The position numbers and the translations under genes are program-made. A model generated the notes under the pieces. That model saw only the letters and a program-made list of their open reading frames with translations. It was not told the DNA's origin and did no database searches. Below are positions 18,242-62,837 of a stretch of 64,000 nt of DNA, one piece after another; the stretch's first letter is position 1, and each line of letters starts with the position of its first letter. Origin of the DNA: Nitrosopumilus sp. (lineage in GTDB: Archaea > Thermoproteota > Nitrososphaeria > Nitrososphaerales > Nitrosopumilaceae); NCBI GenBank assembly GCA_965214775.1, contig OZ243974.1, forward strand, positions 1,248,001 to 1,312,000. The letters are read 5' to 3'.

Positions 18242-18351
18242 GTAGTAGAACAGGGACAGCAGAAGACTCTCCTTCAGAAAGTAACATTCTACAGATTCCG
18301 CGACCGCCAAACCAAGTAGTAGAACAGGGACAGCAGAAGACTCTCCTTCAG
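18242..18351. repeat. Repeat-insert-repeat (36+38+36)
   Basis: gtagtagaacagggacagcagaagactctccttcag at 18242-18277 and 18316-18351. Confidence 0.9.
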
Positions 18352-18675
18352 GCTGAGGGCAGTCGGGCGTCCTGCACCGATGATGTCACGCTTGCGGTCT
18401 TTTTTGGCAGAAAGCAGAAAGCCTCTTTCTGTCCATCTTTGGGTGTTTTTTTGCCACCTTTGCATACAACAAATCAAATTCGGGGGCAGTCATGCCGGCA
18501 AACATCTTCTTGAATGTCCCGGGGGTTTTTTGACAATTTATCAAATAACTTCATGAATTATGTACATTTTACTAGCGTTTGGATCGGGTTGGTGTACATT
18601 ATGTGTCTGTTTGATCAAAATTTGCTAATTTCGAATCAACTCTCAGATGACGATGTATGCTCGAATCCATCTACT

Positions 18676-18838
18676 GAGAGACGATTCGAAACTAGAAACC
18701 GTGCAAATGCCCGGATTTTTCTGTATCTTTGTCAAGTAATTTTACAGACAGACAACCTGCCATTTGTGATCATTTCAATCGATTTGATGCAAGTTTGCTT
18801 GTACATGATCTGAATCTGCCAATTTCGAATCAGCCCTC
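18676..18838. mobile_element. MITE family A2
   Basis: Degenerate family-A TIRs. Homologous to the split MITE at 1533/4103. Confidence 0.7.
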
Positions 18839-19014
18839 TGGCAATGCCAGTCATCGCCGGGATGGCTGCAGCGCCGTCCAAGTTCTCTATCACGAGCTTA
18901 TTCGGGTTCTGGCAAATGCCAGTCATCGCCGGGATGGCTGCTTGCAGACGACGGAACCAGGCTGATGCGCACATACGAGTTCTGGCAAATGCCAGTCATC
19001 GCCGGGATGGCTGC
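18838..19014. CRISPR. CRISPR-like mini-array with three 36-bp repeats and two spacers; no cas genes nearby, probably ectopic
   Basis: gttctggcaaatgccagtcatcgccgggatggctgc at 18906-18941 and 18979-19014, degenerate copy at 18838-18869. Spacers of 36 and 37 nt. Spacer 2 equals 7410-7446. Confidence 0.65.
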
Positions 19015-20611
19015 AGCACCCGTATGCAGGCGGGGCGTATGTGTGGTGCGTGGGGACCGGGGCGGTCTGGTTTATCGCGTACACGCGGACGTTGTCATAC
19101 CAGTTGTGGTGATCCCAGTCCGTTCCCCATATGTCGCGCATGTATAAGACGATGGTGATCGCGTCGCGCCCGGAGGCGTGTCCGGTTATGTCCGTCGTGT
19201 ACGTCTGCCATCCGGTGTCTGTCGTGCCACCAAGCACCAGGTATGAACGGTGCAGCCAGTTGCCCGAGTCCGCATCCAGTATCGCCATCCGAGTGTTGGT
19301 CACGGAGCTGTCTGGGGTTGCGCCGATGGCCTTGTAGTCGTAGGACAGCACGAGCCTCTGCCCGGACACGTCTAGGGAGGATACGTCGACGGTCTTCTGC
19401 ATGCCAGCATATACCACGATCTCGTCCTCCGTGTGCACGTGTGCCGCAGTCCGGCCGTCAACGGACTGCCTGCCAATCTCGTACTCTGTCGCGGTGCCCC
19501 AGTACGACCAGCCCTCAAGCGAGGAATCAAAGGTGTCGTTGAGCGGCATCGCGTGCCTTGTCTGGTGGACCGCCTCCGTCGGTAGCATCTCGACGGTGCC
19601 CGAGCCGGCCCCCTGCCGCACCGCGTATCCGTCAAAGATCCATTCGGAGTGGCCCGTGATGTCGACCGAGCGCAGGATCAATGTATGGCCGTGCGGCGGG
19701 CGCGAGGCCTCTATGAAAAGGGTCACCTCGTCCAGCTGCGAGCGCGACCAGTCCGGCGTCAGGACTACCGTCAGATCGGAGGCGTCATGCGGGGCCGCAT
19801 GCAAGTGCGGGCGCTCGTATGATGCCAGGACGCCGCCGCCCTTGGATGCTGGCCAGGATTCCGTAAAGTCGGATCGATGCCCATCTTCTCGATCCAGCAG
19901 TGCAGGGCCGCCCTTGGATGCTGGCCAGGATTCCGTAAAGTCGGACGCGGCGTACCTTGAATACCCCCCGTCGCGGAGGTATGCGCCGACGTATGGATCC
20001 GTCTCCAGCCCCACATCCAGCACGATGTCGCGGCCGCGCAGCTCCGCGGCGGGGAATGACTTGAAGAGGTGCATTGTGCCGTGGCCGGAGGTAGTCGACC
20101 AGAGCGCGATGTCAGATAGCGACTGCGGATTCATGGTCGCTACCACCGCGCCGTCTCCCCCCACCATCTGGTACTGCCAAGCCGTGTCCAGATAGGACGG
20201 ATCCACTGTTACCGTTGAAGTGGCAGTTACCGTGTTGCCCGACGAGTCGGTTGCGATCCACAGCACGGTAGTCGTGCCAAACCCTAGCCTTGCCGTCGTG
20301 CTGTGGCTCCCAGTCACGTTGTTTGTCACGATGACGGCGGGATCGTCCGCGTTGGCCACCGAGGCCGTTCCCAGATCTACCGTGGTGAGGATTCCCTTGG
20401 CGGCCACCTTTGTATCCGGCGGGACGGTAAGGACGGGCAATTCGCCGCCTGCCTCGTCGGCGGCCCTCATGCCAGACCAATCATAGGTTACAAGAAACGA
20501 TACGACTATCGCTGCGGCCAGTACGGCTACCAGCACTGCGGCTGTCCTCTCAGGGCGCAAACGCCACGGCGTGCGGCTCGCATCCGGCGTTACGGAATGG
20601 GATTCCGACAT
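18923..20611 (-). CDS. Membrane-anchored surface protein (HYR/Ig-like and carbohydrate-binding-like domains), C-terminus disrupted
   Basis: N-terminal TM and HYR-like GTTTVLWIATDSSGN. High GC. The ORF runs into the mini-array. Confidence 0.6.
   Translation of the reverse strand: MSESHSVTPDASRTPWRLRPERTAAVLVAVLAAAIVVSFLVTYDWSGMRAADEAGGELPVLTVPPDTKVAAKGILTTVDLGTASVANADDPAVIVTNNVTGSHSTTARLGFGTTTVLWIATDSSGNTVTATSTVTVDPSYLDTAWQYQMVGGDGAVVATMNPQSLSDIALWSTTSGHGTMHLFKSFPAAELRGRDIVLDVGLETDPYVGAYLRDGGYSRYAASDFTESWPASKGGPALLDREDGHRSDFTESWPASKGGGVLASYERPHLHAAPHDASDLTVVLTPDWSRSQLDEVTLFIEASRPPHGHTLILRSVDITGHSEWIFDGYAVRQGAGSGTVEMLPTEAVHQTRHAMPLNDTFDSSLEGWSYWGTATEYEIGRQSVDGRTAAHVHTEDEIVVYAGMQKTVDVSSLDVSGQRLVLSYDYKAIGATPDSSVTNTRMAILDADSGNWLHRSYLVLGGTTDTGWQTYTTDITGHASGRDAITIVLYMRDIWGTDWDHHNWYDNVRVYAINQTAPVPTHHTYAPPAYGCCSHPGDDWHLPELVCAHQPGSVVCKQPSRR
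19835..19945. repeat. Repeat-insert-repeat (39+33+39), in frame
   Basis: gccgcccttggatgctggccaggattccgtaaagtcgga occurs twice with period 72. Confidence 0.9.
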
Positions 20612-21111
20612 CTTCCCAGCCCCAAACTATGCGCCGCCGTATTGCCTGACTTTGACATATTTTTTAGCAACGGGATCTCGTTTTTATCTTTTTTGCGTAG
20701 GCGCCGTTTATCTATTGTGCCGAAATCATTTCGCACCGGCATAAGGAGGCTGGCAAGGACTGCATTATGCTGTACCGATCAGCAAAACCGATGACAAGGC
20801 TTGGAGAGAGACGTGTCAAATACGTAACGAGTCAGTGCGGCAGGGGAACATGGTAATACGCATTTCCGTAAACAAAAGAAGTGGGGGATGGCTGGGCATG
20901 CGCAGATGGCAGTACAAACTGCAGTGGAGGCGCATGAGACAGTATTCTCAGGTCCGGATACAGCCCAAAGAACTTGTCGACGAGCTCCTCTTGAAAGTTT
21001 GCCTGGCGCATCTCGTCCTCCGCGCTGACTTCGGGACATAACACCTCGAAGAATGCTGTCATATCATGCATTGATTACTCCGGGCTGCTCACTCCGCTCA
21101 GCGGATCCTCA

Positions 21112-21250
21112 GAGAGGTGATCCGAAATTAGAAGCCGTGCGAATTTTTCAAGTAATTTCACAGATAATCTGTATTTTGTTGGTGTTTTGAGCCGTTTTAT
21201 GCAAATTCGTTCACAAATAATCAGAGTCTGCTAATTTCGAATCAACTCTC
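21112..21250. mobile_element. MITE family A
   Basis: TIRs as in the element at 17296-18643. Confidence 0.85.
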
Positions 21251-21403
21251 AGGCTGATGTGCAGGCTCAGAAAGACAAACACCCGCAGGAGGTTCGGTCT
21301 GCAAGGCCATAGGATGGAACCTTGAGGTGCTAAACAGGATGGAGTGTGCTGCAAGGATTGGCGTGCCGGTGGAGGCAGCCTGAGGTGAATTAGGCGACAA
21401 CCC
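21251..21403 (+). mobile_element. 3' remnant of an IS5-like element carrying the MITE-B terminus
   Basis: ORF tail KAIGWNLEVLNR...EAA* followed by gaattaggcgacaacccc. Confidence 0.5.
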
Positions 21404-21707
21404 CCATTTTATCACCTCCTTTTTGATCAAAGTGTGTGTGCCCAACTGAACGGAAAACCCCCATTCGCCTCGATTATGTGGCATTTCGTCGTCCGTCTAC
21501 TCTGAGCCAGTCTCTTACGCGCCCTCATGTGTGGCAAGTTTACTTCGGCTCTTGGGCCCAACACGGATAATATGGCGTCCGCTACGGATAAGATTTGATG
21601 TATGAGGTTACGTCCCCTTGCCGGCTAGGCACGGAAATCATAATTGTACATGCCAATTCATGCCTGATTGATAGGGGTAGGTGACCACATACGATTTGAT
21701 ATAACGT
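21404..21707 (-). ncRNA. Second IS110 left end, putative bridge RNA (interrupted by MITE D at 21600-21692; recombinase lost)
   Basis: Colinear similarity to 4185-4381, including tttgatcaaaaaggaggtgataa-ATG. Confidence 0.6.
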
Positions 21708-21861
21708 CTCTTACCATCCACCCGCCATCTTGGGATTCTACTTGGGCACAAAATTCCAACCCAAAGACGATCTGAGTTTCATGTCCCAAAGATTACACAG
21801 AACCTGCAAGGCCAATCTTTATATATTTTATGTAACAATAATTGCCTATAGGTAAATTATC

Positions 21862-22677
21862 GTGACACAGAATACAAACATTGGGCTCCAAAATAGACTC
21901 CTTTTGGAACTAGCAGAAAAGGAGATTAACGTGTTTAATTTTGATGATGCAAAAAAGGTTCTGCAGGCCAATAATTCAGCAACAAGGCATGTTCTTATGA
22001 ACCTGACAAGGAAAAGACGGTTACAGAGAATAGAGCGAGGAAAGTATCTTCTAATTCCAGAAAGGGCAGGAATAGAGGGGCATTGGGCTGAATCTTCCTG
22101 GGTTATAGTTCCACATCTGATTGACACATATTATGTCGGCTTTTGGACTGCAATGAATTTTTGGGACATGACAGAACAGATTCCTTACACTGTATTTGTT
22201 GCAACGACTAAAAGAAAACGAAATCTGGAATATTTGAAACAAAGGTTTGAATTTGTAACACTGTCAAAGAAAAAATTCTTTGGGTTCGTCGAGCAGAAGG
22301 CAGGTAACAGAGAAACTTTCAATATCTCATCAAGGGAAAAAACAATCGTAGACGGTTTAATGCATCCCGAATATTGTGGAGGACTAGCAGAAGTAACCAA
22401 AGCAATGTGGAATGCACGAAAAGAGACTGACTGGAAAACCGTTCTTGAAATGGCAGAAAAAGTAGAAATTAACGCTGTTTTAAAGCGATTGGGATATGTG
22501 CTGTCTGTTCTTGACATCGAAGGAAGAATTTCAGAAAAAATAAGGAAAAAAATAAAAAAAAATCCTTATCACTATCTTGATCCTACTGCAAACAAAGACA
22601 GGATTGAAACTTCAAAGGAACATGGATTGTACATCAACAGATCAAAAGACGAGTTATTGGCGTGGATGGATTACTAG
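21862..22677 (+). CDS. abiEi: Type IV TA antitoxin (AbiEi family)
   Basis: RIERGKY, YYVGFWTA, TEQIP and EKTIVD motifs. Confidence 0.85.
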   Translation: MTQNTNIGLQNRLLLELAEKEINVFNFDDAKKVLQANNSATRHVLMNLTRKRRLQRIERGKYLLIPERAGIEGHWAESSWVIVPHLIDTYYVGFWTAMNFWDMTEQIPYTVFVATTKRKRNLEYLKQRFEFVTLSKKKFFGFVEQKAGNRETFNISSREKTIVDGLMHPEYCGGLAEVTKAMWNARKETDWKTVLEMAEKVEINAVLKRLGYVLSVLDIEGRISEKIRKKIKKNPYHYLDPTANKDRIETSKEHGLYINRSKDELLAWMDY

Positions 22678-23441
22678 TGGATGAAAAATTACTTAGAAAA
22701 TTAGCAAGCAAATACAAAATACCGTTAGGAACGTTAGAAAAAGATTACGCATTGACAAACATCCTGTCAGTAATCGCCGGTTTTCCAGAATTAGACAAAA
22801 TGGTTTTCAAAGGTGGCACTGCATTGAAGAAGATGTTTTTTGAAGATTTTCGCTTTTCTGAAGACCTTGATTTTGTTTGTTTTGAAGATGTTTCTGACAA
22901 TTTTATGAATTTTGTGAAAAACAGTATGGGCAATCTTGATGTAGAATTTACAGAGATATCAAACGTAGAAAGAAAGGGCAAGAGTTTCAGGTTCAAAGTA
23001 AAGTATGGTCAATCTACAGGTGCCAGAACAAGCATCAAGGTGGATTTGAGTTTGCGTGGTGATGTGATACTAAAACGCCCTGCTAAGCCGGTTTTACACT
23101 TCTATGAGACCCTTCAAACCCCGTTTTTCGTGCCAGCAATGGCACTTGAGGAGGTTATGGCTGAAAAAATCAGGGCCATAACATACACAAAACATCCCAG
23201 ACATTTGTATGATATCCATTACCTACATCACCAAGGAATTAAGATCAATTCCGACATGGTTAGAACAAAGATAAAGTCTGTTTACAATGAAGATTTTGAT
23301 TTGGACAAGATGAAGGAAAGATTGCCTGAAAAAGCAAGAGATTGGATGACTGATTTAAGACCTCTTCTTCCTGTCCTGCCACCGTCTTTTGACGATGTTT
23401 CAAAAGAGGTACTCAAGGTAATTACCAGTGCAATGAAATAG
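22662..23441 (+). CDS. abiEii: Type IV TA toxin, AbiEii nucleotidyltransferase
   Basis: EKDY, FKGGTAL, RFSEDLDF, EKIRA and RHLYD motifs. Confidence 0.9.
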   Translation: MDGLLVDEKLLRKLASKYKIPLGTLEKDYALTNILSVIAGFPELDKMVFKGGTALKKMFFEDFRFSEDLDFVCFEDVSDNFMNFVKNSMGNLDVEFTEISNVERKGKSFRFKVKYGQSTGARTSIKVDLSLRGDVILKRPAKPVLHFYETLQTPFFVPAMALEEVMAEKIRAITYTKHPRHLYDIHYLHHQGIKINSDMVRTKIKSVYNEDFDLDKMKERLPEKARDWMTDLRPLLPVLPPSFDDVSKEVLKVITSAMK

Positions 23442-23493
23442 CGCAATCACACGTAACATCTTGGACTGGAAGTTTAGGCACGAATTTTGCCGC

Positions 23494-23790
23494 TGTGTTA
23501 TATGAAAATTAGGTTCGTTAGTCATTGATGTCCATCTCCACCTATTTTGGGTCTTTTTTTCTGATCGCTTCTGTGGCCTCCCTTGCCAAAAAGGCCTGCA
23601 GTGGCGTCTCACACTTGTCGATATCCAGTGCAAAGTGCAGTGGTGAGGACCCCAAAAAAGAAGGAACGATCTGCAATGCACACTTTTTGAATAAGGAGGT
23701 CGAATCACAAATATGAGTAAGAAAATACGGAGTGTACAGGACAAGATAGGGATAGTCATGGAGCACATCAACACCAATAAGGACGCGCAC
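23494..23790. mobile_element. IS481 end fragment adjoining an IS3 left end
   Basis: Similar to 1647-1800 and to 29380-29515. Confidence 0.7.
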
Positions 23791-24888
23791 ACGAGTCGCC
23801 TCATGGATCCCGGCGGGGCAGACGGGCAGCAAAAAGCAAGGCCGGCAAGGCGCCTGTCTGGATTCGGGGCAGCTGCCAGGTACTGCGGCTCTAAGATGTC
23901 CAAGTTCGGTGGGGCCCTATACGCATCTTGCACGGCAAAGGACAGGATCAGGGTCGCCTTTATCTACAAGCCGTCTTGGAGATACTATGACCGAAACAAC
24001 TCCATCAACAACAGGTACTATTTCTTTTTTCAGGCGCTACGGAGAAACAGGAACCTCCAGATGGGCTATTTTCCCGCAGAGCATACGTTTGATACGGCAA
24101 AGCTCAGGGGAAAGTACGATGTCATACTGTGTACGAACAGCGAGATCAGCACGCCGCAGCTAAACGGCGCCCGGGATCTGGGCATCCCGGTGATTGCCCA
24201 CACGCACGACCCACACCACATCAAAACGTTTGATCTAGTCGGCTTTCATGAAAAGTACGGGGTGGACTATTACTTTAACTTCATACCTGCCAGTTATTTT
24301 TACAAGTACCTTCCAAGGGACTTTGGGTACAGGATGATAACTTATGGTGTCGAGCCAGATCTGCCACATCTGCCCGCATTCGCAGACCGGATAAGGGATC
24401 GCATTCTGCTTACGGGGACGCTCTGGAAGGGGAACGCAAACGACCCTGTCCAAAACCCCTATACGCTGAGGAGGACGTGCAGGGATCTGCCGTACGTCGA
24501 CTATGCCGGGGTCGTGCCAGGCACCATCCAGTACGTGCACGCAGGACATCCGGACTTTATAACACACCTGTCACGGTACAGGGCAACCATAACCGCAACG
24601 AGGTACTTTCCTACCATCAAGTACTACGAGTCCACGGCTGCCGGATGCCTGACGTTCATGGAGTTCTCAGAGGAAAGCCACGGCGGGTACCTAGGATTCC
24701 GGGACGGGGAGAGCGCAGTGTTTATCGACTCTAAAAACTACAAAAAAAGGTTCGAGGAATACTTGGCCTCTCCAGATGATCCAAAGTGGGCGCAAATAGC
24801 GGCGCGCGGAAAAAGACACACCATGGAGAACCTCACAAACGACAAGGCGGCCGAGTCCCTTGTGGACCTGATGCGGGAGCTGATCTGA
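23713..24888 (+). CDS. Glycosyltransferase-like protein (GT-B) fused to an IS3 OrfA N-terminus
   Basis: KYYESTAAGCL and IAARGKRH motifs. The first ~22 aa match IS3 OrfA. Confidence 0.65.
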   Translation: MSKKIRSVQDKIGIVMEHINTNKDAHTSRLMDPGGADGQQKARPARRLSGFGAAARYCGSKMSKFGGALYASCTAKDRIRVAFIYKPSWRYYDRNNSINNRYYFFFQALRRNRNLQMGYFPAEHTFDTAKLRGKYDVILCTNSEISTPQLNGARDLGIPVIAHTHDPHHIKTFDLVGFHEKYGVDYYFNFIPASYFYKYLPRDFGYRMITYGVEPDLPHLPAFADRIRDRILLTGTLWKGNANDPVQNPYTLRRTCRDLPYVDYAGVVPGTIQYVHAGHPDFITHLSRYRATITATRYFPTIKYYESTAAGCLTFMEFSEESHGGYLGFRDGESAVFIDSKNYKKRFEEYLASPDDPKWAQIAARGKRHTMENLTNDKAAESLVDLMRELI

Positions 24889-24916
24889 GTCTTTGCATGT
24901 TTTTTGCCTCTTCCCA

Positions 24917-25194
24917 GAGAAGCGATTCGAAATTAGAGACCGTACGAATTTTTCAAATAATTTCACAGATAATCTGTATTTTGTTGATGTTTTGGGGGTT
25001 GTCGCCTAATTCCACTTGTTTGACTCAATCTGCACGTTTTTCTGAATTTCTGCCCCTTTGCATGCCTGATCCATGTGGCATCTCAGCGGTTCTCAGGAAT
25101 TCTGGCGAATTAGGCGACAACCCCGATGTTTTGAGCTGATTTACGCAAATTCGTCCACAAATAATCAGAATCTGCCAATTTCGAACCAACTCTC
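24917..25194. mobile_element. MITE A containing MITE B (24995-25124)
   Basis: B TIR ggggttgtcgcctaattc, 9-bp TSD gatgttttg. Confidence 0.85.
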
Positions 25195-25242
25195 AGGGGC
25201 GAGATAAGGATGGCAGAAATGAGCGGCTGGTTGATGTAGATG

Positions 25243-27744
25243 TTACGTATACTTGACGTCCCCGTGTGCCGTACCACCGTTTCCTCCGCCCGAAGAGTCC
25301 GACAGATCGCCCTCGAACTCAAGGTGCATCAGGAGCGCACCATCATAGTCTCCCATACACGCATGATCACCGGTAAGCGCGTCGACGGTGCCGGTGCCTT
25401 TGGTGTCTGACACGGTAGCCATCTCCACATGGCATTTGTGTACGTCCGATATGTAGTCGGCAGGCAACCGTGCCGAGTATATCATGATATCATCCAGCAC
25501 GGTATCCTGTGCAGGATTTCTGCCGATGCTACTAGCACCTATCGCAAGCCGGTGATCATTTGCAACGGATCCTGCCAGCGACGTGTTGTACCAGCGCAGA
25601 TTGTCGATCTGTCCGTCCACGTACACGTCGAGTCCGCCCCTGTCTCCTGAGCCATCATAGGTAAACACGATGTGGTGCCAGCGGCCGTCGGTCATGCCGG
25701 AGAACGTGCCGACGGTGATCTGGCTTTGCGCATCGTCTGCCATCCGGAATGAAATCCCGCCATATGGGTTGCCCCATACGGTGATGCCCTGCTGCCTGGC
25801 CGCGTCAGCCTTTGAGATGATCAACGAGTCAGGGTTGCCGGGTTCGAGCATCTTGATCCAGAAGGCTATGCTGAACGGATCGGCCCCACCGAGATCGAGT
25901 CCGGGTGCGGCGGCAAGCGTGACGTATGCAGTGCCGTCAAGGTGGAGGGCCCGGCCGGCGGGGCCGTATGCAGGCAGGGACGTCCACCCGGGCGGGTTCC
26001 ACACCGTCACCTCCATACTGCTACTGAAATGTCGGTGGAACTTGGATGGTATCGGCGTGTCTGGTTTTGAGGGACCCTGAAACTCGATTACCCTATCACT
26101 GCCATCGTATATGTCAACATACCGCTGTGACCAGTCCGTTTCCGGAGACGCCGTCGCATTGCCCCCATCACCACCGCCGGTCTCCAGCACGTTCCTATGA
26201 AACTTGACCCTGTCGACAGAGTCGATCATTACGATCTTGTTGGTTTTGTGCGGACGCGTGTCGTACAGGTCATATCTGTCCAAGCTTGAATGGGTAATAT
26301 TGTAGCCGTGCAGCCGCCATGATTCGTTAATCAGCCACATGATTATTTCCGCGTCGGAGCCGGCATAGTTTTGCAGCGCAAAGAACAGTGCGCTAGGATA
26401 GGCAGACATCGTGTCCCAATGCACAAACACTCCCGACGTGGACAGGCCGAGCGCCGCGACGGCAAGCAAGGCAGCCAGCAACAGCGTGCGCTGCCTCCCC
26501 GGATCCTGTATTCTGGCTGATGCCCTTTCAATCCCTGCGCCGATCAGTGCGGCGGCGGCAATGCACATCACAGTCCACAACATCCCCAGATGGTAGAGGT
26601 ACGTCACGAACCCGATTGATCCAAAGAACAGCAGGACGGGTGCGGCCCACAGCAGCAGAAACCTGTTGCGTGAGGCCACCGCAAAGGCCAGTCCTGCTGT
26701 GCCCAGCGATACCATGACCGGATCCATCTCGAACAGCAGTATCGTGGCCACCAGCATGATCGCAGGACGGGTCAGTATGTCAGGATCCTGGTCATATACG
26801 AGGGCGATCGACGTGTATTGCTGCAGCAGATCCAGCTTGGACTGACTGCCCCTGTCTGTGTGCCACAGGACGCCGTCCACCCACCCGTCAAAATCACCTG
26901 CCAGTGCCGCAGAGGCGGGCCAGGCTGCCGCAATCAGGATTGCGGGCACAAGCCACAGCAGTACGCGCCCCGGCCTCCTGCCGGCCGACCAGACCAGAGC
27001 GAGGACAAGCGGGATCATGACAAGCGAGGGAACCTTGACAAGCATGGCGCATCCCATGCAGACACCAGACAGGATGATCAGCAGTCGAACCCTGCCCGGA
27101 GCCGGCGGCAACAGCGGCTCCCCATCCCCACTTCCTTGGAATGGGCCGCGTGCGTACATGGCAAGCAGAACGGAGGACAGGACGAACGGGAGGAGGATCG
27201 AGTCCAGTACAACCAGTCTGAGCGTCAGCGATACGGGCATTACCGCAAACAGGACGGCTGCAATCGGCGCTGCCCTGCGCCCGAAGCCCCTCTCGGCTAT
27301 CTTGTATATCAAAAAGGTGTCCAAGACGGCAAGCAGGCCCATGAGGATGCGCGGTGCCCCGTAAAGCATCCCAAGCGAGGATGCGCCCTCCGGTGTTACA
27401 AAGGAGTCGGGATATCCGGTGGCATGCAGGAATCCGGCCAGCATGGTGATAGAAGAGATGTCATGATATTCGTATGGGTAGGCAGATCCGGTGGCATGCA
27501 GGAATCCGGCCAGCATCGTCCAGCCAAGGAACGGGTGGTCGTGCCTGTCTGACAGTATCTTGTGGTTCAGGACGTCTAGAGCCTGGCCTATGTAGGTTGA
27601 CTCGTCTGGGTGCCACGACGGAAACCCTGCCGTGTTCCACATGTGCGTGTATGCAGAAAGCACCAGTATTGCTACAAGCAGGAGGAGTGGCCCGTGCCCC
27701 GACAGGCGCCCCGTGCGAATGGTGGTACGTCCGAGGCCAAGCAT
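25243..27744 (-). CDS. GT-C (PMT/ArnT-like) membrane glycosyltransferase with LamG domain, probably 3'-truncated
   Basis: PDESTY and DHPFLG motifs, many TM segments, and WHHIVFTYDG...VYVDG. Confidence 0.75.
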   Translation of the reverse strand: MLGLGRTTIRTGRLSGHGPLLLLVAILVLSAYTHMWNTAGFPSWHPDESTYIGQALDVLNHKILSDRHDHPFLGWTMLAGFLHATGSAYPYEYHDISSITMLAGFLHATGYPDSFVTPEGASSLGMLYGAPRILMGLLAVLDTFLIYKIAERGFGRRAAPIAAVLFAVMPVSLTLRLVVLDSILLPFVLSSVLLAMYARGPFQGSGDGEPLLPPAPGRVRLLIILSGVCMGCAMLVKVPSLVMIPLVLALVWSAGRRPGRVLLWLVPAILIAAAWPASAALAGDFDGWVDGVLWHTDRGSQSKLDLLQQYTSIALVYDQDPDILTRPAIMLVATILLFEMDPVMVSLGTAGLAFAVASRNRFLLLWAAPVLLFFGSIGFVTYLYHLGMLWTVMCIAAAALIGAGIERASARIQDPGRQRTLLLAALLAVAALGLSTSGVFVHWDTMSAYPSALFFALQNYAGSDAEIIMWLINESWRLHGYNITHSSLDRYDLYDTRPHKTNKIVMIDSVDRVKFHRNVLETGGGDGGNATASPETDWSQRYVDIYDGSDRVIEFQGPSKPDTPIPSKFHRHFSSSMEVTVWNPPGWTSLPAYGPAGRALHLDGTAYVTLAAAPGLDLGGADPFSIAFWIKMLEPGNPDSLIISKADAARQQGITVWGNPYGGISFRMADDAQSQITVGTFSGMTDGRWHHIVFTYDGSGDRGGLDVYVDGQIDNLRWYNTSLAGSVANDHRLAIGASSIGRNPAQDTVLDDIMIYSARLPADYISDVHKCHVEMATVSDTKGTGTVDALTGDHACMGDYDGALLMHLEFEGDLSDSSGGGNGGTAHGDVKYT
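27414..27516. repeat. Repeat-insert-repeat (31 bp exact, period 72), in frame
   Basis: atccggtggcatgcaggaatccggccagcat occurs twice, giving MLAGFLHATG twice. Confidence 0.85.
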
Positions 27745-30819: not shown

Positions 30820-31172
30820 GGAGTTGATTCGAAATTAGCAGATTCTGATTATTTGTAAACGGATTTGCACAAAGCAGCTCAAAACACCAACAAAATACAA
30901 ATTATTTGTGAAATTACTTGAAAGATTCGTACGGTTTCTAATTTTGGATCACCTCTCTGATGACATGCCTTAGTACACACATCAAAAATTGGAACATAAT
31001 TTTGGCATATTGTGCCTATTTTGGCACAAAAATGTTTGATTTTCAACTGTGCGTACTAGTGATCTTCTTGTCCGACATCTTTCTTGTCATGTCTCTGCCT
31101 GATCGGTACAGTCTGAAATGCTCGGCGACCGTACGCCTTATCTTTAGGCGGATCTAATTTTTGTACAAAACA
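30820..31172. mobile_element. Cluster of MITE A, TA-type MITE H (30971-31058) and an IS481 left-end fragment
   Basis: Similar to 52731-52868, 50044-50130 and 3966-4039. Confidence 0.7.
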
Positions 31173-33019
31173 CGGCCCCGGTTTGCGTTATATGTTTATA
31201 GAGAACTGCGCATACGGCAAATATTGAAGATTATAGCATACCTGTGCGTGTACAACGAGGAGGACATACTGGAGGAGAACGTTCTTTACCACACCGCGCA
31301 GCAGGGGGTGGACATAGTCGTAATAGACAACGGATCAACTGACGCAACTGCCGATATAATCAAAAGGCTGGCAGGAGAGAACAGGATCCTAGATCATGTC
31401 AGGTACACAACAGAAAGATTTTCACTACAGCAGCTGACTAGGGCCGGGTTTGAGCTGGCCAGAAAGCACAATCCGGACTGGATAATACACCTGGATGCCA
31501 GCACGTTTCTTGAGAGCGGTTCCGGATCGGATGTGCCGCTAAGCGAGCAGATACGGAAGGCCGACGAGGCAGGATACAACGTCATCAGCCTGGCATCATA
31601 CGACTTTTACCCGACTGAGAGGGACGATCCGGACGAGTCCAGCGTATTCAAGCGGATGAAGTTCTATGCCAACACAATATACACAAACAGACTACAGGAG
31701 AAGATATTCAAGAACCTTGACGGACTGCTGACCCACAATGGACACAAGATCATATTTCCCAAATCCGCCGAAAAGAAGATATCTGACAAAAAGGCAGTCA
31801 TGCGGCATTACATATTCCGGTCTGCGCCCCACGGCGTAAGAAAGATCCTTGAGAGAAAGAACCGGTGGGATGCCGCCGAGCGTGCAGACAACCACCACAC
31901 CCACTATGACGGCTTTCTTGGATTTGAGGAGGAAATCCCGGTTCCATCTAGGCTCCTTGCGTTCAAAGACGAAGAGGGCGGATGGGACAACTCGATAACA
32001 TACAAAGAACCGCCCCCCCTTCCAACCGAAAAGTATGATATCAACAGGTCACATAGGTTTGACAGACTGCCATTCCGACATTCTGACTGCTGTTTCATTG
32101 TGGGATGTCCGGGTTCGGGAACCTCACTGCTAGGACATATTCTTGAGGGCAATGGCAGTGTCATCTGCTACGGCGAGCCGGCATGCTACGACTATCTGTC
32201 AGATGCGGCCCTGCCTGAGGAGGCCAACAAACAAAAGACTGAAAATGGCGTCCTGGCCTTCGAGTCTGCCGGTATTACAGAATACCTTGACAGTCCAGAC
32301 CGGGCTACAGAATATTCCAGAGGCCGCAGGTTTCCTCCCGCGTTTACATATGACGGCCAGCCGGTTTTATTCCTGGTCAGGGATCCAAGGGACGTATATC
32401 TGTACTTGACGGGGCTCAAATCGGATCCCTTACAGCGTGACGCGGCAGAAGCATGGGAGAAATACATAGATGACCTGGCAGCCGAGGCGAAGGCAAGGGG
32501 CGCCGATCCCGGAGGCGGACATCTCGGAAACCTATCTGCATTGAAAAACGCCGGCAAGCTCTCGCTTGCCGCAAAGGCCGCACTGTATTGGAAGATAAAG
32601 ACAGAGTCATTCTTCAGATATGACGAGCTGGGCTACAACCTGCATCTTGTCCTGTACGAGGATCTGTGCGTGTCGCCCGAGAAAAACCTCGAGGATATTT
32701 GCAACTTTCTAAAAATCCCGTTTGATTCGCAGATGCTAGAACATGACTCCATCAAGCGTGATGTTGGCAAGGGCGGGGTTGCAGATGACGCCCATGTGCG
32801 GCTCATAATGGATCCGGGAGACGCCATAAAATACAGGGGAAATGTTCCCATAGAGGAACAAAGGACAATCCTCTCGATTGCCGGCCCGACATACAAGAAG
32901 ATACAGCACAAATGGATCCAGCAGCTTGGAAAGCCGGACAAGCAGGCCGATGCGTTGGAGACAGCCAAGTCCTATCTTGCTGCCAGAGACGAGAGAATAC
33001 AGGAACTGCAGGAGGATCT

Positions 33020-33489
33020 TGACGAGAAGAACGTCTGGGCGCTGCGCCTTGACGAGGAGGCGGAGATCAAAGATAAGAAGATACGGGAACTTCAAAAGGA
33101 GTTGGACGAGAAGAACGTCTGGGCGCTGCGCCTTGACGAGGAGGCGGAGATCAAAGATAAGAAGATACGGGAACTTCAAAAGGAGTTGGACGAGAAGAAC
33201 GTCTGGGCGCTGCGCCTTGACGAGGAGGCGGAGATCAAAGATAAGAAGATACGGGAACTTCAAAAGGAGTTGGACGAGAAGAGCGTCTGGGCGCTGCGCC
33301 TTGACGAGGAGGCGGAGATCAAAGATAAGAAGATACGGGAACTTCAAAAGGAGTTGGACGAGAAGAGCGTCTGGGCGCTGCGCCTTGACGAGGAGGCGGA
33401 GATCAAAGATAAGAAGATACGGGAACTTCAAAAGGAGTTGGACGAGAAGAGCGTCTGGGCGCTGCGCCTTGACGAGGAGGCGGAGATCA
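33020..33489 (+). repeat. 78-bp tandem repeat, about 6 copies (26-aa coiled coil)
   Basis: ELDEK(N/S)VWALRLDEEAEIKDKKIRELQK units. Confidence 0.95.
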
Positions 33490-33864
33490 GGGACAGGGAG
33501 GCGGAGATCAAAGATAAGAAGCTGGGTGACCTTCAGAGGGAGTTAGACTCTACCAAAAAGACCATAGAGAACAAAGAGTCAGAGATGGCAGATCTGCTAC
33601 AGAAGATGCATGTGCAGAACGACGAATTTGAGGAGATCAGGCAGTCAGTCCTGTTCAAAACTGCATCAGGTCTTGCCAGAAAACTGGACAAGTTGTTCCC
33701 GCAGAATAGCAAAAGGGGCGAGATGTTCAGATTGTCCAAGGCATTGTTTGACATAGTCCAAAACGACGGATATGGGGCCCTTCTGAGAGCCTTTAGGGAG
33801 AAATGGCGCAGCAGATCCGAATCCCCTCCCCCCGAAGACACCAGCATCAGTTATGAAAAGACCA

Positions 33865-33980
33865 GGCAGCATCCTGATGACGCGTCTGCTGCCGACTCTG
33901 CAGAGCAGGCAGAGCAGTAGCAGGCGTCGATCAGGGGGCAGCATCCTGATGACGCGTCTGCTGCCGACTCTGCAGAGCAG
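33865..33980. repeat. Repeat-insert-repeat (44+28+44, period 72)
   Basis: ggcagcatcctgatgacgcgtctgctgccgactctgcagagcag occurs twice. Confidence 0.9.
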
Positions 33981-49136: not shown

Positions 49137-49246
49137 ACGTCTGGGAAGACTGATCTTCAGGTACGAGTTTACGGGATAACTATCGTGACTGTAATATGTC
49201 GTAAATGCGGACGTCTGGGAAGACTGATCTTCAGGTGCGAGTTTAC
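49137..49246. repeat. Repeat-insert-repeat (36+38+36)
   Basis: acgtctgggaagactgatcttcaggt(a/g)cgagtttac occurs twice. Confidence 0.9.
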
Positions 49247-55169: not shown

Positions 55170-55245
55170 GTGACTATTCTGGGGAGTTCGGATTTAAAAA
55201 TAATGTCCAAAGGTTAATTAGTCGTTCAGCATTTTCTGGGAATGC

Positions 55246-55662: not shown

Positions 55663-55693
55663 CTTAACATATAACGATTCTACATTTTGACTC

Positions 55694-56956: not shown

Positions 56957-57317
56957 CGTAATTTGCGACACAAGTTTCTTGATTCATTTTGCTACGAAAA
57001 AAATCGTCAATATTGACAGTCTTGACGTTGAAATTGGCCAACTCTCGTTTTTAGTTCCCAATGTGGTCCGAAACGAACTGATCAAATTGCAACAAAACCC
57101 GACTAAAAAACAAGATATTGATCACACCCTGAATTTCATAAAAAAATTTCAAACCCTTGAAATTAACGGAACTTTTGCCGACAAGGAAATTTTGGATTAC
57201 ATTTCAAACAGCAATTCAATTGTGGCAACAATGGATAAAGAATTAAAAAGCCAAATCAAATCCAAGGGACGATCGGTCATGTCAGTTAACAACAATCGAA
57301 TTATTCTGGAATCTTAG
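56949..57317 (+). CDS. PIN-domain protein (Fcf1/Utp24-like)
   Basis: CDTSFL and VATMDKEL motifs, in the typical position after aIF2-gamma. Confidence 0.8.
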   Translation: MVDVICDTSFLIHFATKKIVNIDSLDVEIGQLSFLVPNVVRNELIKLQQNPTKKQDIDHTLNFIKKFQTLEINGTFADKEILDYISNSNSIVATMDKELKSQIKSKGRSVMSVNNNRIILES

Positions 57318-57352
57318 AAAAATTTAACTTCTAGTATCCTTTTTTTATCTTA

Positions 57353-57808
57353 ATGACTAGTCTTACTTTGGAAAGCGATTCATTTGAAAATAACGGGATC
57401 ATCCCAAAAAAATTTGGATATAAAAATGGAAACACTAGCCCTTCTTTGAGAATATCGAACATTCCTGAAAATACCAAATCATTGGCACTTGTAATGGATG
57501 ATCCGGATGCAATGCAGGCTGTTGGAAAAGTGTGGGTACATTGGATACTGTATAACATTCCCACAAATTCGGTTTTTCAAGAAAATAAAATTCCTTCAGA
57601 GTGCATTGAAGGAAAAACCGACTTTGGAGATATAGGCTATGGCGGACCGGCTCCTCCTGACAAAGAACATACCTATGTTTTCAAATTATACGCACTGGAT
57701 AATGTCTTGAATTCAAGTGATCCCCTCTCAAAGGAGGAACTCGAAAAGTTAATGGACGGCCATATAATCTCTCAAGCAACCCTGCAAGGCAGATATTCTC
57801 CGCAATAG
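57353..57808 (+). CDS. YbhB/YbcL (PEBP-family) protein
   Basis: MDDPDA, WVHW, GYGGPAPP and LYALD motifs. Confidence 0.9.
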   Translation: MTSLTLESDSFENNGIIPKKFGYKNGNTSPSLRISNIPENTKSLALVMDDPDAMQAVGKVWVHWILYNIPTNSVFQENKIPSECIEGKTDFGDIGYGGPAPPDKEHTYVFKLYALDNVLNSSDPLSKEELEKLMDGHIISQATLQGRYSPQ

Positions 57809-57822
57809 CCAGCAGACCGAAA

Positions 57823-57964
57823 CAGTAGCTCAAAATGTACACTCTGAATCCCAACTCTGAGATTGTGTCTTTGCCCATTCACAGCTCTGCACGCATGGGA
57901 TTCTGCATGCCAAGGTCCCACGAGACGGCGGCCACAAGTAACAGTGGCACATTTTCAACTACTG
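57823..57964. mobile_element. ISH3-type MITE
   Basis: Homolog of 463-604. Confidence 0.8.
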
Positions 57965-58042
57965 GGAAATGTACTCACTTTAAATCCACTTGGCAGACCA
58001 GCCAAGTGAAATGTAAATGAGATTTGTTGTTTTGCCTTGCTA

Positions 58043-58121
58043 TAGCAACGAGCAGAAATAATTGAGGTTTTTTACGTGTAGTTATGACCTACTTTGACTC
58101 AAAGACTTCTGCCCGTTGCTA
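58043..58121. mobile_element. MITE family C
   Basis: TA-flanked, matches 49015-49093. Confidence 0.85.
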
Positions 58122-58405
58122 TATTGAGGCGTCGTACCCACTGCCCAGTCTTGTTTTTGCTCGATTTTTTGGCACGTTTTACTTGGCTGCAGACAGCATG
58201 AAATACATGAAATAATCAAATCAGTGATCGAACAAAAAAATAGTGACAAAAATCGAATCAACAAAAGAGAATGAGGAAGAAACAAAAAAGAAGGTCGACT
58301 CTGGCAAAAAACCAAGCTATAATTTTGCATGGCCGGAACAAAAGCAGAAAGAATCAAACCTACCCTGTGATTTGGTCTCGGATTTTTTTATTATGGTGTT
58401 TTAGT

Positions 58406-60070
58406 GGGATTGTCACCTAATTCGCCAGAACTCCTGAAAACCACTGAGATGTCAGTGGATCAGACGTGCAAAATGGCGGAAATTCAGAAAAACGTGCAGG
58501 TTGAGTCAAACAAGTCAGTACTTCCTAGGTGTACTTTTACAGGCACGGTAATTACGTAATTTGGAGAAGATCTTATGCGTAAACGAAGTTAGCGGCTATG
58601 GCGTGCCGGGTCTGCAAAAGCACATCTATAGCAACGAGCAGAAATAATTGAGGTTTTTTACGTGTAGGGCGTTGTCCGGAATCGTGATTTTAGGACGTGA
58701 TTTCCGGGGAGATTTGTACAAAATCATGGCGCAATGACTGCAAACATAGAGACGAATCCGCACTCCGGCCCGCATTGTGTAGTTATGGCCCGTGTTTTGA
58801 CGTCATACTGCATAGCATCCGCTAGCCGGACGATTCCACCGTACCGGCATTATGGATCCTAGCTGACCAGATTGTAGCAGAATACCTTGAGGGTAAGCCT
58901 GAGCGACTGCATCGGAAGCGACATGGCGCGCACCGTGGAGTCAAACCTTGCCTTTATCGACGAGAAGGCCGACTCAACGAGGCTGCGCTGGTGGTACGTC
59001 TTCTCGAATCCCTCGGGGTCCTTTTTGTGCCATCTTAGCATCTTGGAGCGGGCGTTGAACCCGTGAACCGTATATCCTATACGCGGACATATCACTGGGG
59101 TTCTGCCTCCGTCGGCTATGACCCTGCAGTTCTCATACGAGTCGTATGCGGCATCCAGGATCACGTGTCCTGTGCCGTTGGGAACCTGCGGTAGCAGCTC
59201 GTTACGGAACACCGGGGAATCATGGAATTCGCCCGGCGTCACCTCGCAGGCGGCAATCTTGCCGTGCGGGGCCAACAGTATGTGCAGCTTGGCAAACATC
59301 TGCCTGGATATGACGCCCTTCTTTGCGTCCTCCCATGTGTGGTATCTCATTATGGAGAAACCGCTAGAGTCGCCAAGCAACGTTCCCCTGGCGTCTGCGC
59401 CTGCCTGTTCTGAGAGTACCGATCTTAGCACCGACTTGTCCCAGGCAGCTATCCTTACGGCTGCATCATGCAGTGTCGACTTGGCCGGAACCTTTTTGAG
59501 CCCGTACATGTTAGTTGAACCAGGATTCGACTCCATGTATTCGACGTGTCTGCGATACGAGTTTCCGCGGTACTCCATGTCGAGTACGCACAGAAGATAG
59601 GGAATTTCATCCTCTTGCTCTGTGTTATGGAGGAGGGACAGGAGGATCTTGCGGATCTTTTTGATTCCGATGCCGCACCTCTTGCTGTCCTCTCTCCTTT
59701 TTTTCTCGTACTCGGCATAGTATTCCGGAGGTCTCGTGTACTCTGACTTTTTTTTCTTGCTGGTCTTGCTGGATTCCTTCTTGGATTCCTTCTTGGATTC
59801 CTTCTTGGATTCCTTCTTGGATTCCTTCTTGGATTCCTTCTTGGATTCCTTCTTGGATTCCTTCTTGTTGGTCTTTGATTTCATTGATACGGGGACGTCG
59901 ATCCTATGATCCATAAGGTTGTCGCATCCTGCGCTTATGATCTATAAGCTTATCGGTAGATTTCTGGAAAAATTCCGGACAACGCCTACGTGTAGTTATG
60001 ACCTGCTTTGACTCAAAGACTTCTGCCCGTTGCTATAGGAAGTACTGAAGTGGAACTAGGCGACAACCCC
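58406..60070. mobile_element. Four-level nest: MITE B > ISH3-type MITE (58516-60047) > MITE C (58629-60035) > IS5 (58668-59986)
   Basis: The three inner layers have TSDs aagt, ta and tacgtgtag. Confidence 0.85.
58859..59914 (-). CDS. IS5-family transposase, copy 2, (KKES)8
   Basis: Near-identical to 2707-3774. Confidence 0.9.
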   Translation of the reverse strand: MDHRIDVPVSMKSKTNKKESKKESKKESKKESKKESKKESKKESKKESSKTSKKKKSEYTRPPEYYAEYEKKRREDSKRCGIGIKKIRKILLSLLHNTEQEDEIPYLLCVLDMEYRGNSYRRHVEYMESNPGSTNMYGLKKVPAKSTLHDAAVRIAAWDKSVLRSVLSEQAGADARGTLLGDSSGFSIMRYHTWEDAKKGVISRQMFAKLHILLAPHGKIAACEVTPGEFHDSPVFRNELLPQVPNGTGHVILDAAYDSYENCRVIADGGRTPVICPRIGYTVHGFNARSKMLRWHKKDPEGFEKTYHQRSLVESAFSSIKARFDSTVRAMSLPMQSLRLTLKVFCYNLVS

Positions 60071-60850
60071 CTCCTAAAAAGACCAAAAACGACATAATAC
60101 GAGCCGGAAAAAGGGACAGGTTCAAGCATGCAGAACCAAACCAGTTGTGGGAGACTGACATTACATACGTCTGGTGTGGCATTGACGGCTGGTGCCACTG
60201 CTTTAACATAATTGACACATTCACCAGAAGGTGGATGGCATACGTCTTTGACACGCAGGCCACCGCATAGATAGCAGTTGAGTCACTGACAAAGGCAGTC
60301 TTTACAATCTCGGCAGACGAGGCACGCAGACTGCTGATCAGAAGTGACAACGGCGTCCAGTATGCGAGCCGCGGGTTCAAAGACAATATGAGGGCGCTTG
60401 TGGTAAGGCACAAGTACATCTGGCACAACACGCCCAAACAAAACGGACATGTCCAGTCCTTCCACAAGACCCTCAAAAGGGAGTACGTCTGGCCGCATGA
60501 CTTTGCCAGGTTCCAGTATGCAGAAGTCGTCATTCCAGTGCACCGCTCATCAGACTTTATGCGTAATCTACCTGAATGAGATGAATTTGTTCGTAATAAT
60601 CCCAGATCTGAGCCGATTACGCATAAAGTCTATCTTCTCAATCTTGATGCCCATGACTTTGCCAGGTTCCAGTATGCAGAAGTCGTCATGGCAGAGGCGT
60701 TTGAGGATTACAACTCCAATAGGATCCACTCTGCGCTGGGATGCCATACATACATGCATGACCAAAAAGACAGAGTACGTAAAATCAAAGGGCAAGATGA
60801 TCACAAGAATTTGTCTAGATTGTCGGCTCGGTTCAGTTGACAACTTGAAC
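60071..60850 (+). pseudogene. IS3-family OrfB integrase remnant
   Basis: PNQLWETDITYV, IDTFTR, RSDNGVQY and NGHVQSFHKTLKRE motifs, with an internal stop. Confidence 0.8.
60496..60689. repeat. Repeat-insert-repeat (38+35+38) with an 80-bp MITE (60552-60631) inside the insert
   Basis: catgactttgccaggttccagtatgcagaagtcgtcat occurs twice. MITE TSD atc. Confidence 0.88.
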
Positions 60851-60932
60851 CGGCCACTCTGGCAAATTATGAAATGTCATTTGACATATTTCGCCAAATA
60901 GCGACTCGCCAAATAGCGACTCGCCAAATAGT

Positions 60933-62417
60933 AGACTTTATGCGTAATTGGAAAATCTGATCTAAAAATACAACACAACAGATCATGGTTTGCATACCTA
61001 CAACCATAAAGATCAGTAATGGTTCTCTAACGGTATGGGTTCAGATGTCGAGCTTGTCCAAACACTGCAAGAGCAAAACAAGAGTTTGGTAGAGCAAAAC
61101 GAGCATCTGAAGAGCAGGCTTGCGTTTGAGGACTCGCTGTGGCAGTCCGAAGAAAACAAGACAAAAAGAGTCGTGCGCGGCGGGACGCCTCTGCGGATGC
61201 ACGCAATCGAGGTTGCAGACGGCATAATCGGCGATCCGGTGCGCCTTTGCAACGTCACGGGATGCACAAAGGAGTCATTTGAGATCATACTGGAGCGCTT
61301 TACGGAAGAAGTCATGGACGACGAGGACAGGCCCCTGTTCTGGGAGGACGACGTAAGAGGCGGCGATGCCGGAAACCGGTGCAAGCTGTACATCAGGCAC
61401 GCGCTGCTTGCAGTACTCATGAGCATAAGGACCAAGGCAACGCAGCATCATCTGGCCGCGACATTTGACGTCGACCAGTCCACAATGTCCAGGTACCTCC
61501 GGTACGGTGCCGTGTTACTGCGCCAGCTCCTGCCTGCCTCCGAAAAGCTAACAAGCATCATCTGCAAGACCCCGGCAGGCAAGCTGGAGGAGGTGCTGAT
61601 CCCAAAAAAGACGCTCCTGATTGACGGCACCCTGACTCCGGTAGACAGGCCCGGGGACAGGACCGCAAGAAAGACCAGATACTCGGGAAGAAAAAAGCGG
61701 CACATGTTCAACACGATAATTACCTCGAACCTGGACGGCCTCATACTGCACTGCGGCAAGACTGTGGACGGAAGCGTCAACGACAAGGGCGTGATGAACG
61801 CAGGGGGCGGCCCGGACTTTGGAAGGCACACCGGATCAATGAGGAATGCAAAAAACGCAGACGATCCGGAAGAGGCGTTTGTGATTTACAGCGACCTGGG
61901 ATTTGAGGGCATTCAAAAGATGCTTCCGGGCGCCATACACAGGCAGCCCCCAAAGAAGCCCAGGGACGGGGATCTTACTGCAACGCAAAAGAGGCGCCGC
62001 AAGCAGATAAGCAGGGTCCGCGTCAGAGTGGAGCACCACATAGGGCGGCTCAAAAGATATGGCATTCTTACCATGCCGTTTGGCGGAACTGCCAAGGATC
62101 TAAACTATTTCATGCAGATAATCACGGGTCTTGAGAACCTCAAGACTATGCTGAAAAGGAAAAAACACTATGGCCAGCTGCTGCAGCAGCTGCATCTGCT
62201 GCCAGACACATGACATACGGCGGCACGGACCGCCATTCTTTCTGACTTGTCAAAGGGGCACATTGCCGTGCTGCATGGTTGCGCACGTTCTTTTGGCGCA
62301 ACTGGCTTTTACGTGCGTCATGACACGAGATGCATGCGGTAATTTGATCCGATCAGCGCATTTGCGTTTGGAAAAGCCTACGGAATTTTTAATCACGGTC
62401 GATTACGCATAAAGTCT
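60933..62417 (+). mobile_element. ISL2-like element, copy 2 (transposase 61035-62213)
   Basis: TIR agactttatgc. Near-identical to 35291-36825 except for the 5' part. Confidence 0.88.
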
Positions 62418-62725
62418 ATCATGCATATCCATACGACATCGGCAATAATAAAAGCAGCATGCCCAACTATCAATACTGGAGATGAGAAAAGATGGCCCTG
62501 CGTAATTCCTCCAACCAAAAAGCGTTCAAGAACACGTTTGCGCCCCACATAAGAAATGAGACGCTGACAGTAGTTGAACACATGATAAAAACACCCCCGC
62601 AGCGGTCATGGCGACGGATCAACCCCTTCTTTTTCATGTGCTTGGCGCACTAGTAGTTGAATGGGGTTCTCACCAATGTGCTTTGCGCACTGATGGATGA
62701 CTACAGCTTTTGGTTTGTCAAGACC

Positions 62726-62837
62726 AAGAGGAAAGAAACCGTCTGCGGTGACTCACCTCCTGCATGTCTATGCCGATAATTACGTCACCGTTAATCACGA
62801 AGAGGAAAGAAACCGTCTGCGGTGACTCACCTCCTGC
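62726..62837. repeat. Repeat-insert-repeat (38+36+38)
   Basis: aagaggaaagaaaccgtctgcggtgactcacctcctgc occurs twice. Confidence 0.9.

Follow-up and report, generated by a model that had tools for sequence, protein, structure and literature searches.

What kind of process would leave, at eight unrelated loci of one archaeal chromosome, a copy of the local sequence on either side of a fragment of roughly 36 nucleotides (nt), and hold the spacing of the two copies nearly constant? The question is raised by a 64,000-nt stretch of DNA (hereafter the window, genome positions 1248001-1312000 of contig OZ243974.1, assembly GCA_965214775.1) from Nitrosopumilus sp., whose genome is a single contig of 2,833,656 bp (GC 47.1%) and carries the archaeal amoA gene, and the host is therefore an ammonia-oxidising archaeon. 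We define a unit as a duplicated local target (the repeat) flanking one insert, and the period of a unit as the sum of its duplication and its insert; coordinates refer to the window unless marked as genome positions. An initial annotation, made from the window sequence alone, had described eight such loci and ascribed them to a promiscuous Cas1-type or other integrase that pastes genomic fragments throughout the chromosome. All eight loci, with nine inserts, are present as first described. In our assessment the units are very probably the scars of natural off-target (ectopic) spacer integration by the type I-B Cas1-Cas2 module of this organism's CRISPR-Cas system, a reading that is supported by the geometry of the units, their insertion polarity, a motif at their junctions, the self-derived origin of some inserts, and the presence of the module.

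Abundance and Geometry of Repeat-Insert-Repeat Units

Direct repeats were collected across the genome at every offset from 30 to 300, and 189 isolated repeats were retained, isolated meaning that they lie outside the true CRISPR arrays and overlap no repeat of another period; multi-copy elements (a period-75 group and a period-79/82 group) were counted once. Forty-six of the 189 have periods of 70–74 (3, 5, 11, 15, and 12 repeats, respectively), a sharp peak of the sort that the initial annotation had anticipated. Every other period that is not a multiple of three holds zero to two repeats, except period 82, whose five repeats all come from one element. The peak persisted when the scan was relaxed to at least 27 of 36 matches, which added a few older or filtered units. 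The number of units differs by analysis, with 46 at periods 70–74, 48 or 49 in the unit statistics, and 51 in the density estimate; the unit at genome position 2288313 was dropped in going from 49 to 48 because its source flank equals the repeat, hence it is a repeated element. The period-75 group is a 25–34-nt direct repeat that a single multi-copy element carries in identical form in six or more of its copies (genome positions 113943, 228016, 794568, 1521943, 1531684, and 1590850); an old unit carried along as the element spread is one possible origin, a coding repeat another.

Across 48 units, the duplication measures 36.3 ± 3.9 nt, the insert 36.4 ± 3.6 nt, and the period 72.7 ± 1.4. Duplication lengths are most often 36 nt (14 units) or 37 nt (9 units), and the 35 units at 35–39 nt, here termed canonical, match the length of the host CRISPR repeats (36 and 37 nt), with the other 13 (26–34 or 43–46 nt, termed non-canonical) falling outside it. 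The mean insert is likewise spacer-like, given that the spacers of the true arrays measure 33–39 nt.

The window holds eight of 51 units against 1.15 expected (Poisson 3e-5, post hoc), and is thereby a local hot spot: the rate of one unit per 8 kb given in the initial annotation is right for the window but not for the genome, where the mean is about one per 55 kb. DNA with a paralogous copy spanning the site accounts for 28% of random genome positions, which is unusually repeat-rich for a genome of this size, and insertion sequence (IS) elements and miniature inverted-repeat transposable elements (MITEs) are plentiful. No bias of the units toward IS or multi-copy DNA was detected (15/49 units vs. 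28% of random positions, p = 0.40). The inverted repeats that had been reported in several duplicated copies find weak support, with a longest stem of 4.29 vs. 4.08 (p = 0.054) and a difference in fold energy (p = 0.003) that is, however, confounded by GC content.

Insertion Polarity, Age, and Effects on Genes

The initial annotation had called for a search for empty alleles, and these exist as paralogs for 15 of the 49 units, with filled paralogs for none (0/49). In this test, the paralog gives two alignments, one with copy 1 and the flank to its left and one with copy 2 and the flank to its right, which overlap by one target copy; the overlap is mostly 36 or 37 nt but can be 28, 31, or 44 nt. 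Because the empty paralogs hold a single target copy, the units are insertions and the repeat is the duplicated target. An orthologous empty allele was sought with a 701-nt DNA query of one window site, which returned nothing in 30 relatives. The duplications are still identical in 44 of the 49 units while the paralogs differ by 3–20%, and the events are therefore young.

Many units across the genome interrupt genes or IS copies, and at several sites the open frame spanning a unit becomes longer when one unit is removed in silico. Six units lie within frames that remain open over at least 240 amino acids (aa), and the period is divisible by three in five of these six. In the window, the genes that have been hit encode a 562-aa protein, a PMT glycosyltransferase with a lectin-like domain, and a glycosyl-/sulfotransferase, along with IS fragments.

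CRISPR Arrays and the Adaptation Module

The initial annotation saw no cas gene in the window and proposed a search for true arrays and for cas1, cas2, and cas4 elsewhere; the genome has two arrays, with 36- and 37-nt repeats and 33–39-nt spacers, and one module. Array A1 (genome 1977219-1978062) comprises 12 repeats of 36 nt with spacers of 36–39 nt, and array A2 (genome 2420114-2425007) comprises 68 repeats, each 37 nt long, and its spacers are mostly 34–36 nt. The single Cas1 match in the genome belongs to an operon that adjoins A2 at genome position 2.42 Mb, about 1.1 Mb from the window. This operon encodes, in order, a 591-aa open reading frame (ORF; without family matches), Cas7 (Csh2), Cas5b, Cas3, Cas6b, Cas1, Cas2, and Cas4, a composition and order that indicate a type I-B layout. 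The A2 repeat on the minus strand ends in ATTGAAAC, and the leader adjoins cas4. Among ten ORFs tested near A1, none matched a cas family.

Four A2 spacers are irregular in length (50, 30, 29, and 57 nt). They are numbers 3, 5, 6, and 7 from the leader (genome 2424500-2425007), the 57-nt spacer holds a truncated repeat, and the remaining 63 A2 spacers measure 33–39 nt. This cluster at the leader end suggests recent imprecise adaptation, or rearrangement, in this lineage.

Target Preference at the Unit Junctions

To describe the target sites, both ends of the 35 canonical units were pooled, yielding 70 half-sites. After correction, their composition departs from background at positions -3, -2, -1, +2, and +4; weaker departures are seen at -4, +1, and +5 to +7. 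The consensus is G-S-Y / S-Y-N-K-S-A-A (the slash marks the junction). Scored by leave-one-out, the two ends of a unit each conform to the motif (p = 1e-12 and 2e-15). Its inner part agrees with the ends of the true repeats, all four of which (GTCGTAA, GTTTCAA, CTTTCCA, and GCTTCAA) score in the top 0.4–4% of genome positions, and the A2 leader-repeat junction (ggct/GTCGTAA) is in the top 0.4%. The overall identity between targets and CRISPR repeats is near null, and the likeness is therefore confined to the junctions.

Origin of the Inserts

Near-full-length matches elsewhere in the genome were found for 16 of 49 inserts, or 15 of 48 once the repeated element is dropped, and five of the matches are exact; the window insert at 18942-18978 is an additional exact self match besides these 15. 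The view in the initial annotation that the inserts are genomic fragments thus applies to 15 of the 48 and not to the other 33, whose mean GC content is 51.6% vs. 46.7% for the self-derived inserts. Some inserts match host genes, and inserts and targets are mutually unrelated in sequence. Exact-match scans of viral contigs with parts of two array spacers and the cores of three window inserts returned no match.

Of the 78 spacers in the true arrays, none matches the host's own genome. Since the duplicated targets are presumably not substrates for Cas6b, the units would probably not be made into CRISPR RNA (crRNA), and self-derived inserts could persist in them as they do not in true arrays. The difference between units and arrays may in this way be attributed to the absence of an autoimmunity filter at sites that yield no crRNA. 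Two of the exact self sources (genome 2405741-2405776 and 2445016-2445053) lie within about 20 kb of the CRISPR-cas locus, one to either side; although the cases are few, there may be a hot spot for capture near the array.

Distribution of Units Among Relatives

Of 120 other genomes of the family, 11 have a homologue of Cas1 (E ≤ 1e-20), and in three of these the identity is 53–54%. One such relative, G043 (1,699,898 bp, GC 33%), has a Cas1 that is 53% identical and an array in which at least 67 repeats, each of about 36 nt, recur with a period of 70–72. Its genome also contains six isolated units, with unrelated repeats of 35–37 nt and periods of 73, 71, 71, 71, 69, and 69. The 12 half-sites of these units fit the motif trained on the window genome (Fisher 6e-10), and the unit periods are shorter than those of the window genome (t-test p = 0.003), as is the period of the G043 array.

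A second relative, G068, has no Cas1 family match, and in the 1.2 of 1.61 Mb scanned it has no isolated repeat at periods 60–85; nine isolated repeats are present in the scanned part, all with periods that are multiples of three. The only further locus found around related Cas1 genes (L156) contains an array whose 37-nt repeat is A2-like, and its 19 kb showed no isolated unit. In a related metagenome-assembled genome, a repeat starts with GTCTGAA.

Proposed Mechanism and Alternative Explanations

The adaptation module would normally make staggered strand transfers at both ends of a 36–37-bp repeat. We propose that it has repeatedly carried out the same reaction at non-CRISPR sites where a weak motif resembling the repeat end and leader junction occurs on both strands, 36–37 bp apart, and that gap repair would then leave the target in two copies with a spacer of about 36 nt between them. 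Such insertions break genes or, where they are kept in open genes, add 24 codons in frame, and one unit served a second time, becoming a two-spacer neo-array.

Several observations weigh against this proposal. Cas1-Cas2 is tied to the units by association only: the geometry, the module, and the motif support the promiscuous Cas1-type integrase of the initial annotation, and from these we infer that it is the catalyst. The link with cas1 across relatives stands on three genomes, two that are Cas1-positive with units and one that is negative, in which none was found in 1.2 of 1.61 Mb. The 13 non-canonical units do not carry the junction motif, and redrawing their boundaries to 36–37 nt did not recover it. 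A source is lacking for most inserts (33/48), which would nonetheless be expected for captured foreign DNA. Nor was a common protospacer adjacent motif (PAM), which the initial annotation had suggested looking for, found in the flanks of the 16 insert sources; TTN adjoins about five of the 16 sources vs. about two expected, although an intact Cas4 is present. Lastly, duplication and insert lengths are anticorrelated (r = -0.93), the duplication ranging from 26 to 46 nt as the insert ranges from 45 to 26 nt, and the standard deviation of the period (1.4) is well below those of the duplication (3.9) and the insert (3.6). Two independent rulers do not predict such a trade-off, and it therefore counts against the proposal.

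This trade-off is not a selection effect, because isolated repeats of 26–34 or 40–46 nt also cluster at periods 69–76, and not at the periods that a fixed 36-nt insert would give. The short and long duplications are real in the three units for which paralogs show them (28, 31, and 44 nt). One possible explanation, to which we give limited credence and which is linked to a second, is that spacer and target are measured jointly. Speculatively, at the second strand transfer the spacer together with the target segment would close around the complex into a loop whose contour is fixed, about 73 nt long here and about 71 nt in G043, such that a short spacer would force a long duplication and the reverse. 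If true, such a closed-loop ruler would be an undescribed property of Cas1-Cas2 integration that is visible only at non-cognate sites. The linked reading, held at the same tentative level, is that the lineage has recently undergone a lapse in the fidelity of adaptation, as the 44 identical duplications among 49 units and the irregular spacers among the seven newest in A2 could indicate. If this is the case, CRISPR adaptation would be a measurable source of gene disruption and of in-frame protein insertions in ammonia-oxidising archaea.

The same constancy of the sum, held at 72.7 ± 1.4 nt while each part varies over 26–46 nt, could also be produced by a Cas-independent process that adds a fixed length of about 72–73 nt, consisting of a copied fragment and a compensating duplication (e.g., template switching or fixed-patch repair), and the 13 non-canonical units that have no junction motif would fit such a process as well. 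We regard this as unlikely. Intragenomic template switching is a poor fit for the 33 of 48 inserts that have no source in the genome, and microhomology between the source flank and the target end was rejected (3.4 and 2.4 of 10 positions vs. 2.5 expected); one unit (genome 849741) agrees with its source flank at seven of 10 positions. A process of this kind also would not account for a junction motif equal to the CRISPR repeat ends and leader junction, for periods that track each genome's own array, or for the lack of units in 1.2 Mb of the Cas1-less relative.

Spacer integration by the Cas1-Cas2 module was also compared with readings in which the units have a function or move by themselves. 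The form repeat-spacer-repeat and the match of some inserts to host genes would suit functional mini-CRISPR arrays, or crRNA-like regulators, that are kept by selection, and one mini-array with a genuine CRISPR-type repeat does exist in G043 (L013:3914-4022). It has two 37-nt repeats that are very similar to the A2 repeat of the window genome, and it lies 1.5 Mb from G043's own array, whose repeat differs. For the units themselves this explanation is very improbable: each has a different repeat made of local sequence, the paralogs identify that repeat as a duplicated target, no copy of the CRISPR repeats was found outside both arrays at up to seven mismatches (with target similarity near null), and many of the units interrupt genes or IS copies. 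Hardly any weight attaches to a tiny transposable element, or a relative of the casposons, with an unusually long target-site duplication; the abundance of IS and MITE elements and of multi-copy DNA in this genome would accommodate such an element, but no sequence is common to the inserts, terminal inverted repeats are absent from them (identity 1.96 of 8 positions vs. 2 expected), and the single Cas1-family gene is located in the cas operon.

Least credible of all are assembly or amplification artefacts, in favour of which nothing was found, given that contigs from the runs of three studies reproduce the junctions examined and that units of the same type occur in the separately assembled G043. 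This evidence, which the initial annotation had sought in raw reads, comes from a comparison of Logan contigs of four runs (four studies) with window positions 18100-20100. Contigs of two runs (X1 and X5) span the insert at 19874-19906 with parts of both of its copies and, in the neo-array described below, cover insert 1 with the copies before and after it (copies 1 and 2), with no differences in either case; a contig of a third run (X6) runs from the left flank of the 19835 unit through copy 1 into the insert, part of which it covers. In total, the junctions at 18834-18935 and 19835-19945 are supported by runs from three studies with no differences. A joint at 18241-18316 that skips 74 nt occurs in X5 and X6, accompanied by three nearby differences, and is read as IS paralogs without the unit, and not as polymorphism. 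The best-matching runs may represent the source culture of the assembled genome.

Comparison With Known Systems

Off-target integration by Cas1-Cas2 is known to generate neo-CRISPR loci in E. coli overproducing the type I-E proteins (Nivala, Shipman & Church, 2018, as presented in 10.1101/148544, PMC6698737, and PMC7054753), and circumstantial evidence for off-target integration in two other species is mentioned in the same work (10.1101/148544). As described in these sources, the E. coli loci resemble the units reported here in having a repeat-length duplication of non-CRISPR sequence around a spacer-length insert, and in their ability to seed arrays. In the present case, by contrast, the system is type I-B, archaeal, and natural, about 50 events are fixed, a motif marks the junctions, inserts are of self as well as non-self origin, and the lengths of duplication and insert trade off.

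For Pyrococcus furiosus, Cas1-Cas2 is reported to use off-target sites in vitro that share features of the repeat and have a characteristic spacing (PMC6698737); the targets in that account are plasmids in vitro, whereas the scars seen here are heritable and genomic. In the type I-B system of Haloarcula hispanica (Cas1, Cas2, and Cas4), displaced repeat motifs are reported to lead to aberrant duplication sizes (PMC4872114), and a variable duplication would accordingly be expected at non-cognate sites. The changes described there are of 29–33 bp at a mutated CRISPR and are anchored on mid-repeat motifs, and a compensating change in spacer length, which is present in the units, is not mentioned in the accessible part of that report (PMC4872114). 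Mini-CRISPR arrays carried by viruses and proviruses are also described, with a single spacer between two repeats, away from cas genes (PMC8616872). Their repeats equal or resemble the CRISPR repeats of the host, whereas each repeat reported here is an unrelated local sequence.

Among the open papers searched, none was found that describes a natural genome with dozens of such scars. What is new here is an unusually rich natural set of a known type of event, off-target integration, together with the constant-sum property, which is itself a testable rule. Demonstrations of off-target integration have so far come mainly from engineered E. coli; for the questions of its natural frequency, its cost, and the birth of arrays, this genome offers about 50 natural events for which the polarity of insertion can be checked. 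About one third of the inserts are self-derived, compared with none of the array spacers, and the units thereby show uptake before self-targeting spacers are removed. The units also reveal the target sequences preferred by a type I-B integrase, make its mutational cost visible in broken genes and 24-codon in-frame insertions, and catch the birth of an array at the two-spacer stage.

Unit Loci of the Window

A repeat search of the window located two- or three-copy direct repeats with a spacing of 72–74 at 18242, 18828-19014, 19835, 27406, 33865, 49137, and 62723. The first unit (18242-18351) lies inside a multi-copy IS fragment and consists of a 36-nt duplication (18242-18277 and 18316-18351) and a 38-nt insert, with a period of 74. 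Fourteen paralogous copies of this fragment have a single 36-nt target copy and are without the insert.

The neo-array (18834-19014, minus strand) has three copies of its target and two inserts, with periods of 72 and 73. Copy 1 (18834-18869) is followed by insert 1 (18870-18905, 36 nt), copy 2 (18906-18941), insert 2 (18942-18978, 37 nt), and copy 3 (18979-19014); copy 1 has diverged, and an exact core of 27 nt is left. The tracing of one insert to 7410-7446 in the initial annotation proved exact: this putative protospacer, on the plus strand, is identical to insert 2 at 37 of 37 positions, and is flanked by ACGG upstream and CAAG downstream. The right outer junction of the neo-array (tgct/GCAGCCA) scores in the top 0.5% of genome positions for the motif, a level comparable to that of the true leader-repeat junction. 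Since the insert nearest to this junction is the one with an exact genomic source, and the most distant copy is the one that has degenerated, the neo-array appears to have grown from a pseudo-leader on its right side, as a true array would. The seeding of new arrays that the initial annotation envisaged is represented by this one two-spacer unit.

The neo-array overlaps the 3′ end of an ORF of 562 aa (18923-20611, minus strand; family unassigned), and the same ORF is touched a second time by the third unit (19835-19945; 39-nt duplication, 33-nt insert, and period 72), which lies inside it as an in-frame insertion of 24 codons. The ORF is still open despite this insertion. The fourth unit (27414-27516; 31-nt exact duplication, or 42 nt at 90% identity, 41-nt insert, and period 72) also sits in frame, within an 833-aa ORF (PMT glycosyltransferase plus Laminin_G_3), and two paralogous genes (79–87% identity) are without the insert.

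The fifth unit (33865-33980; 44-nt duplication, 28-nt insert, and period 72) truncates a glycosyl-/sulfotransferase ORF (assigned by Pfam matches), and with one unit taken out in silico, the open frame that spans the site grows from 130 aa to 1064 aa. The glycosyl-/sulfotransferase ORF at 31161-33920 also contains an 84-nt tandem repeat (33021-33489; 5.6 copies, 99% matches), which encodes a 28-residue repeat rich in charged residues.

The sixth unit (49137-49246), located where there is no long ORF, has a 36-nt duplication with one mismatch and a 38-nt insert. In the seventh (60496-60689), the two copies of a 38-nt duplication (60496-60533 and 60652-60689) are 156 apart, and the 118 nt that lie between them consist of 18 nt, an 80-nt MITE (60552-60631), and 20 nt. 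The insert, of about 35 nt, was split by the MITE after the unit had formed; its length is 35 nt if the ATC of the MITE was duplicated. Copies of this MITE that measure at least 70 nt number 46 across the genome, the present one counted. The eighth unit (62726-62837) has a 38-nt duplication and a 36-nt insert, with a period of 74. Elsewhere in the window, perfect 12-nt tandem repeats (CAAGAAGGAATC, about nine copies) occur in inverted orientation at 2754-2863 and 59770-59867, and are part of a multi-copy element seen at four further genome positions.

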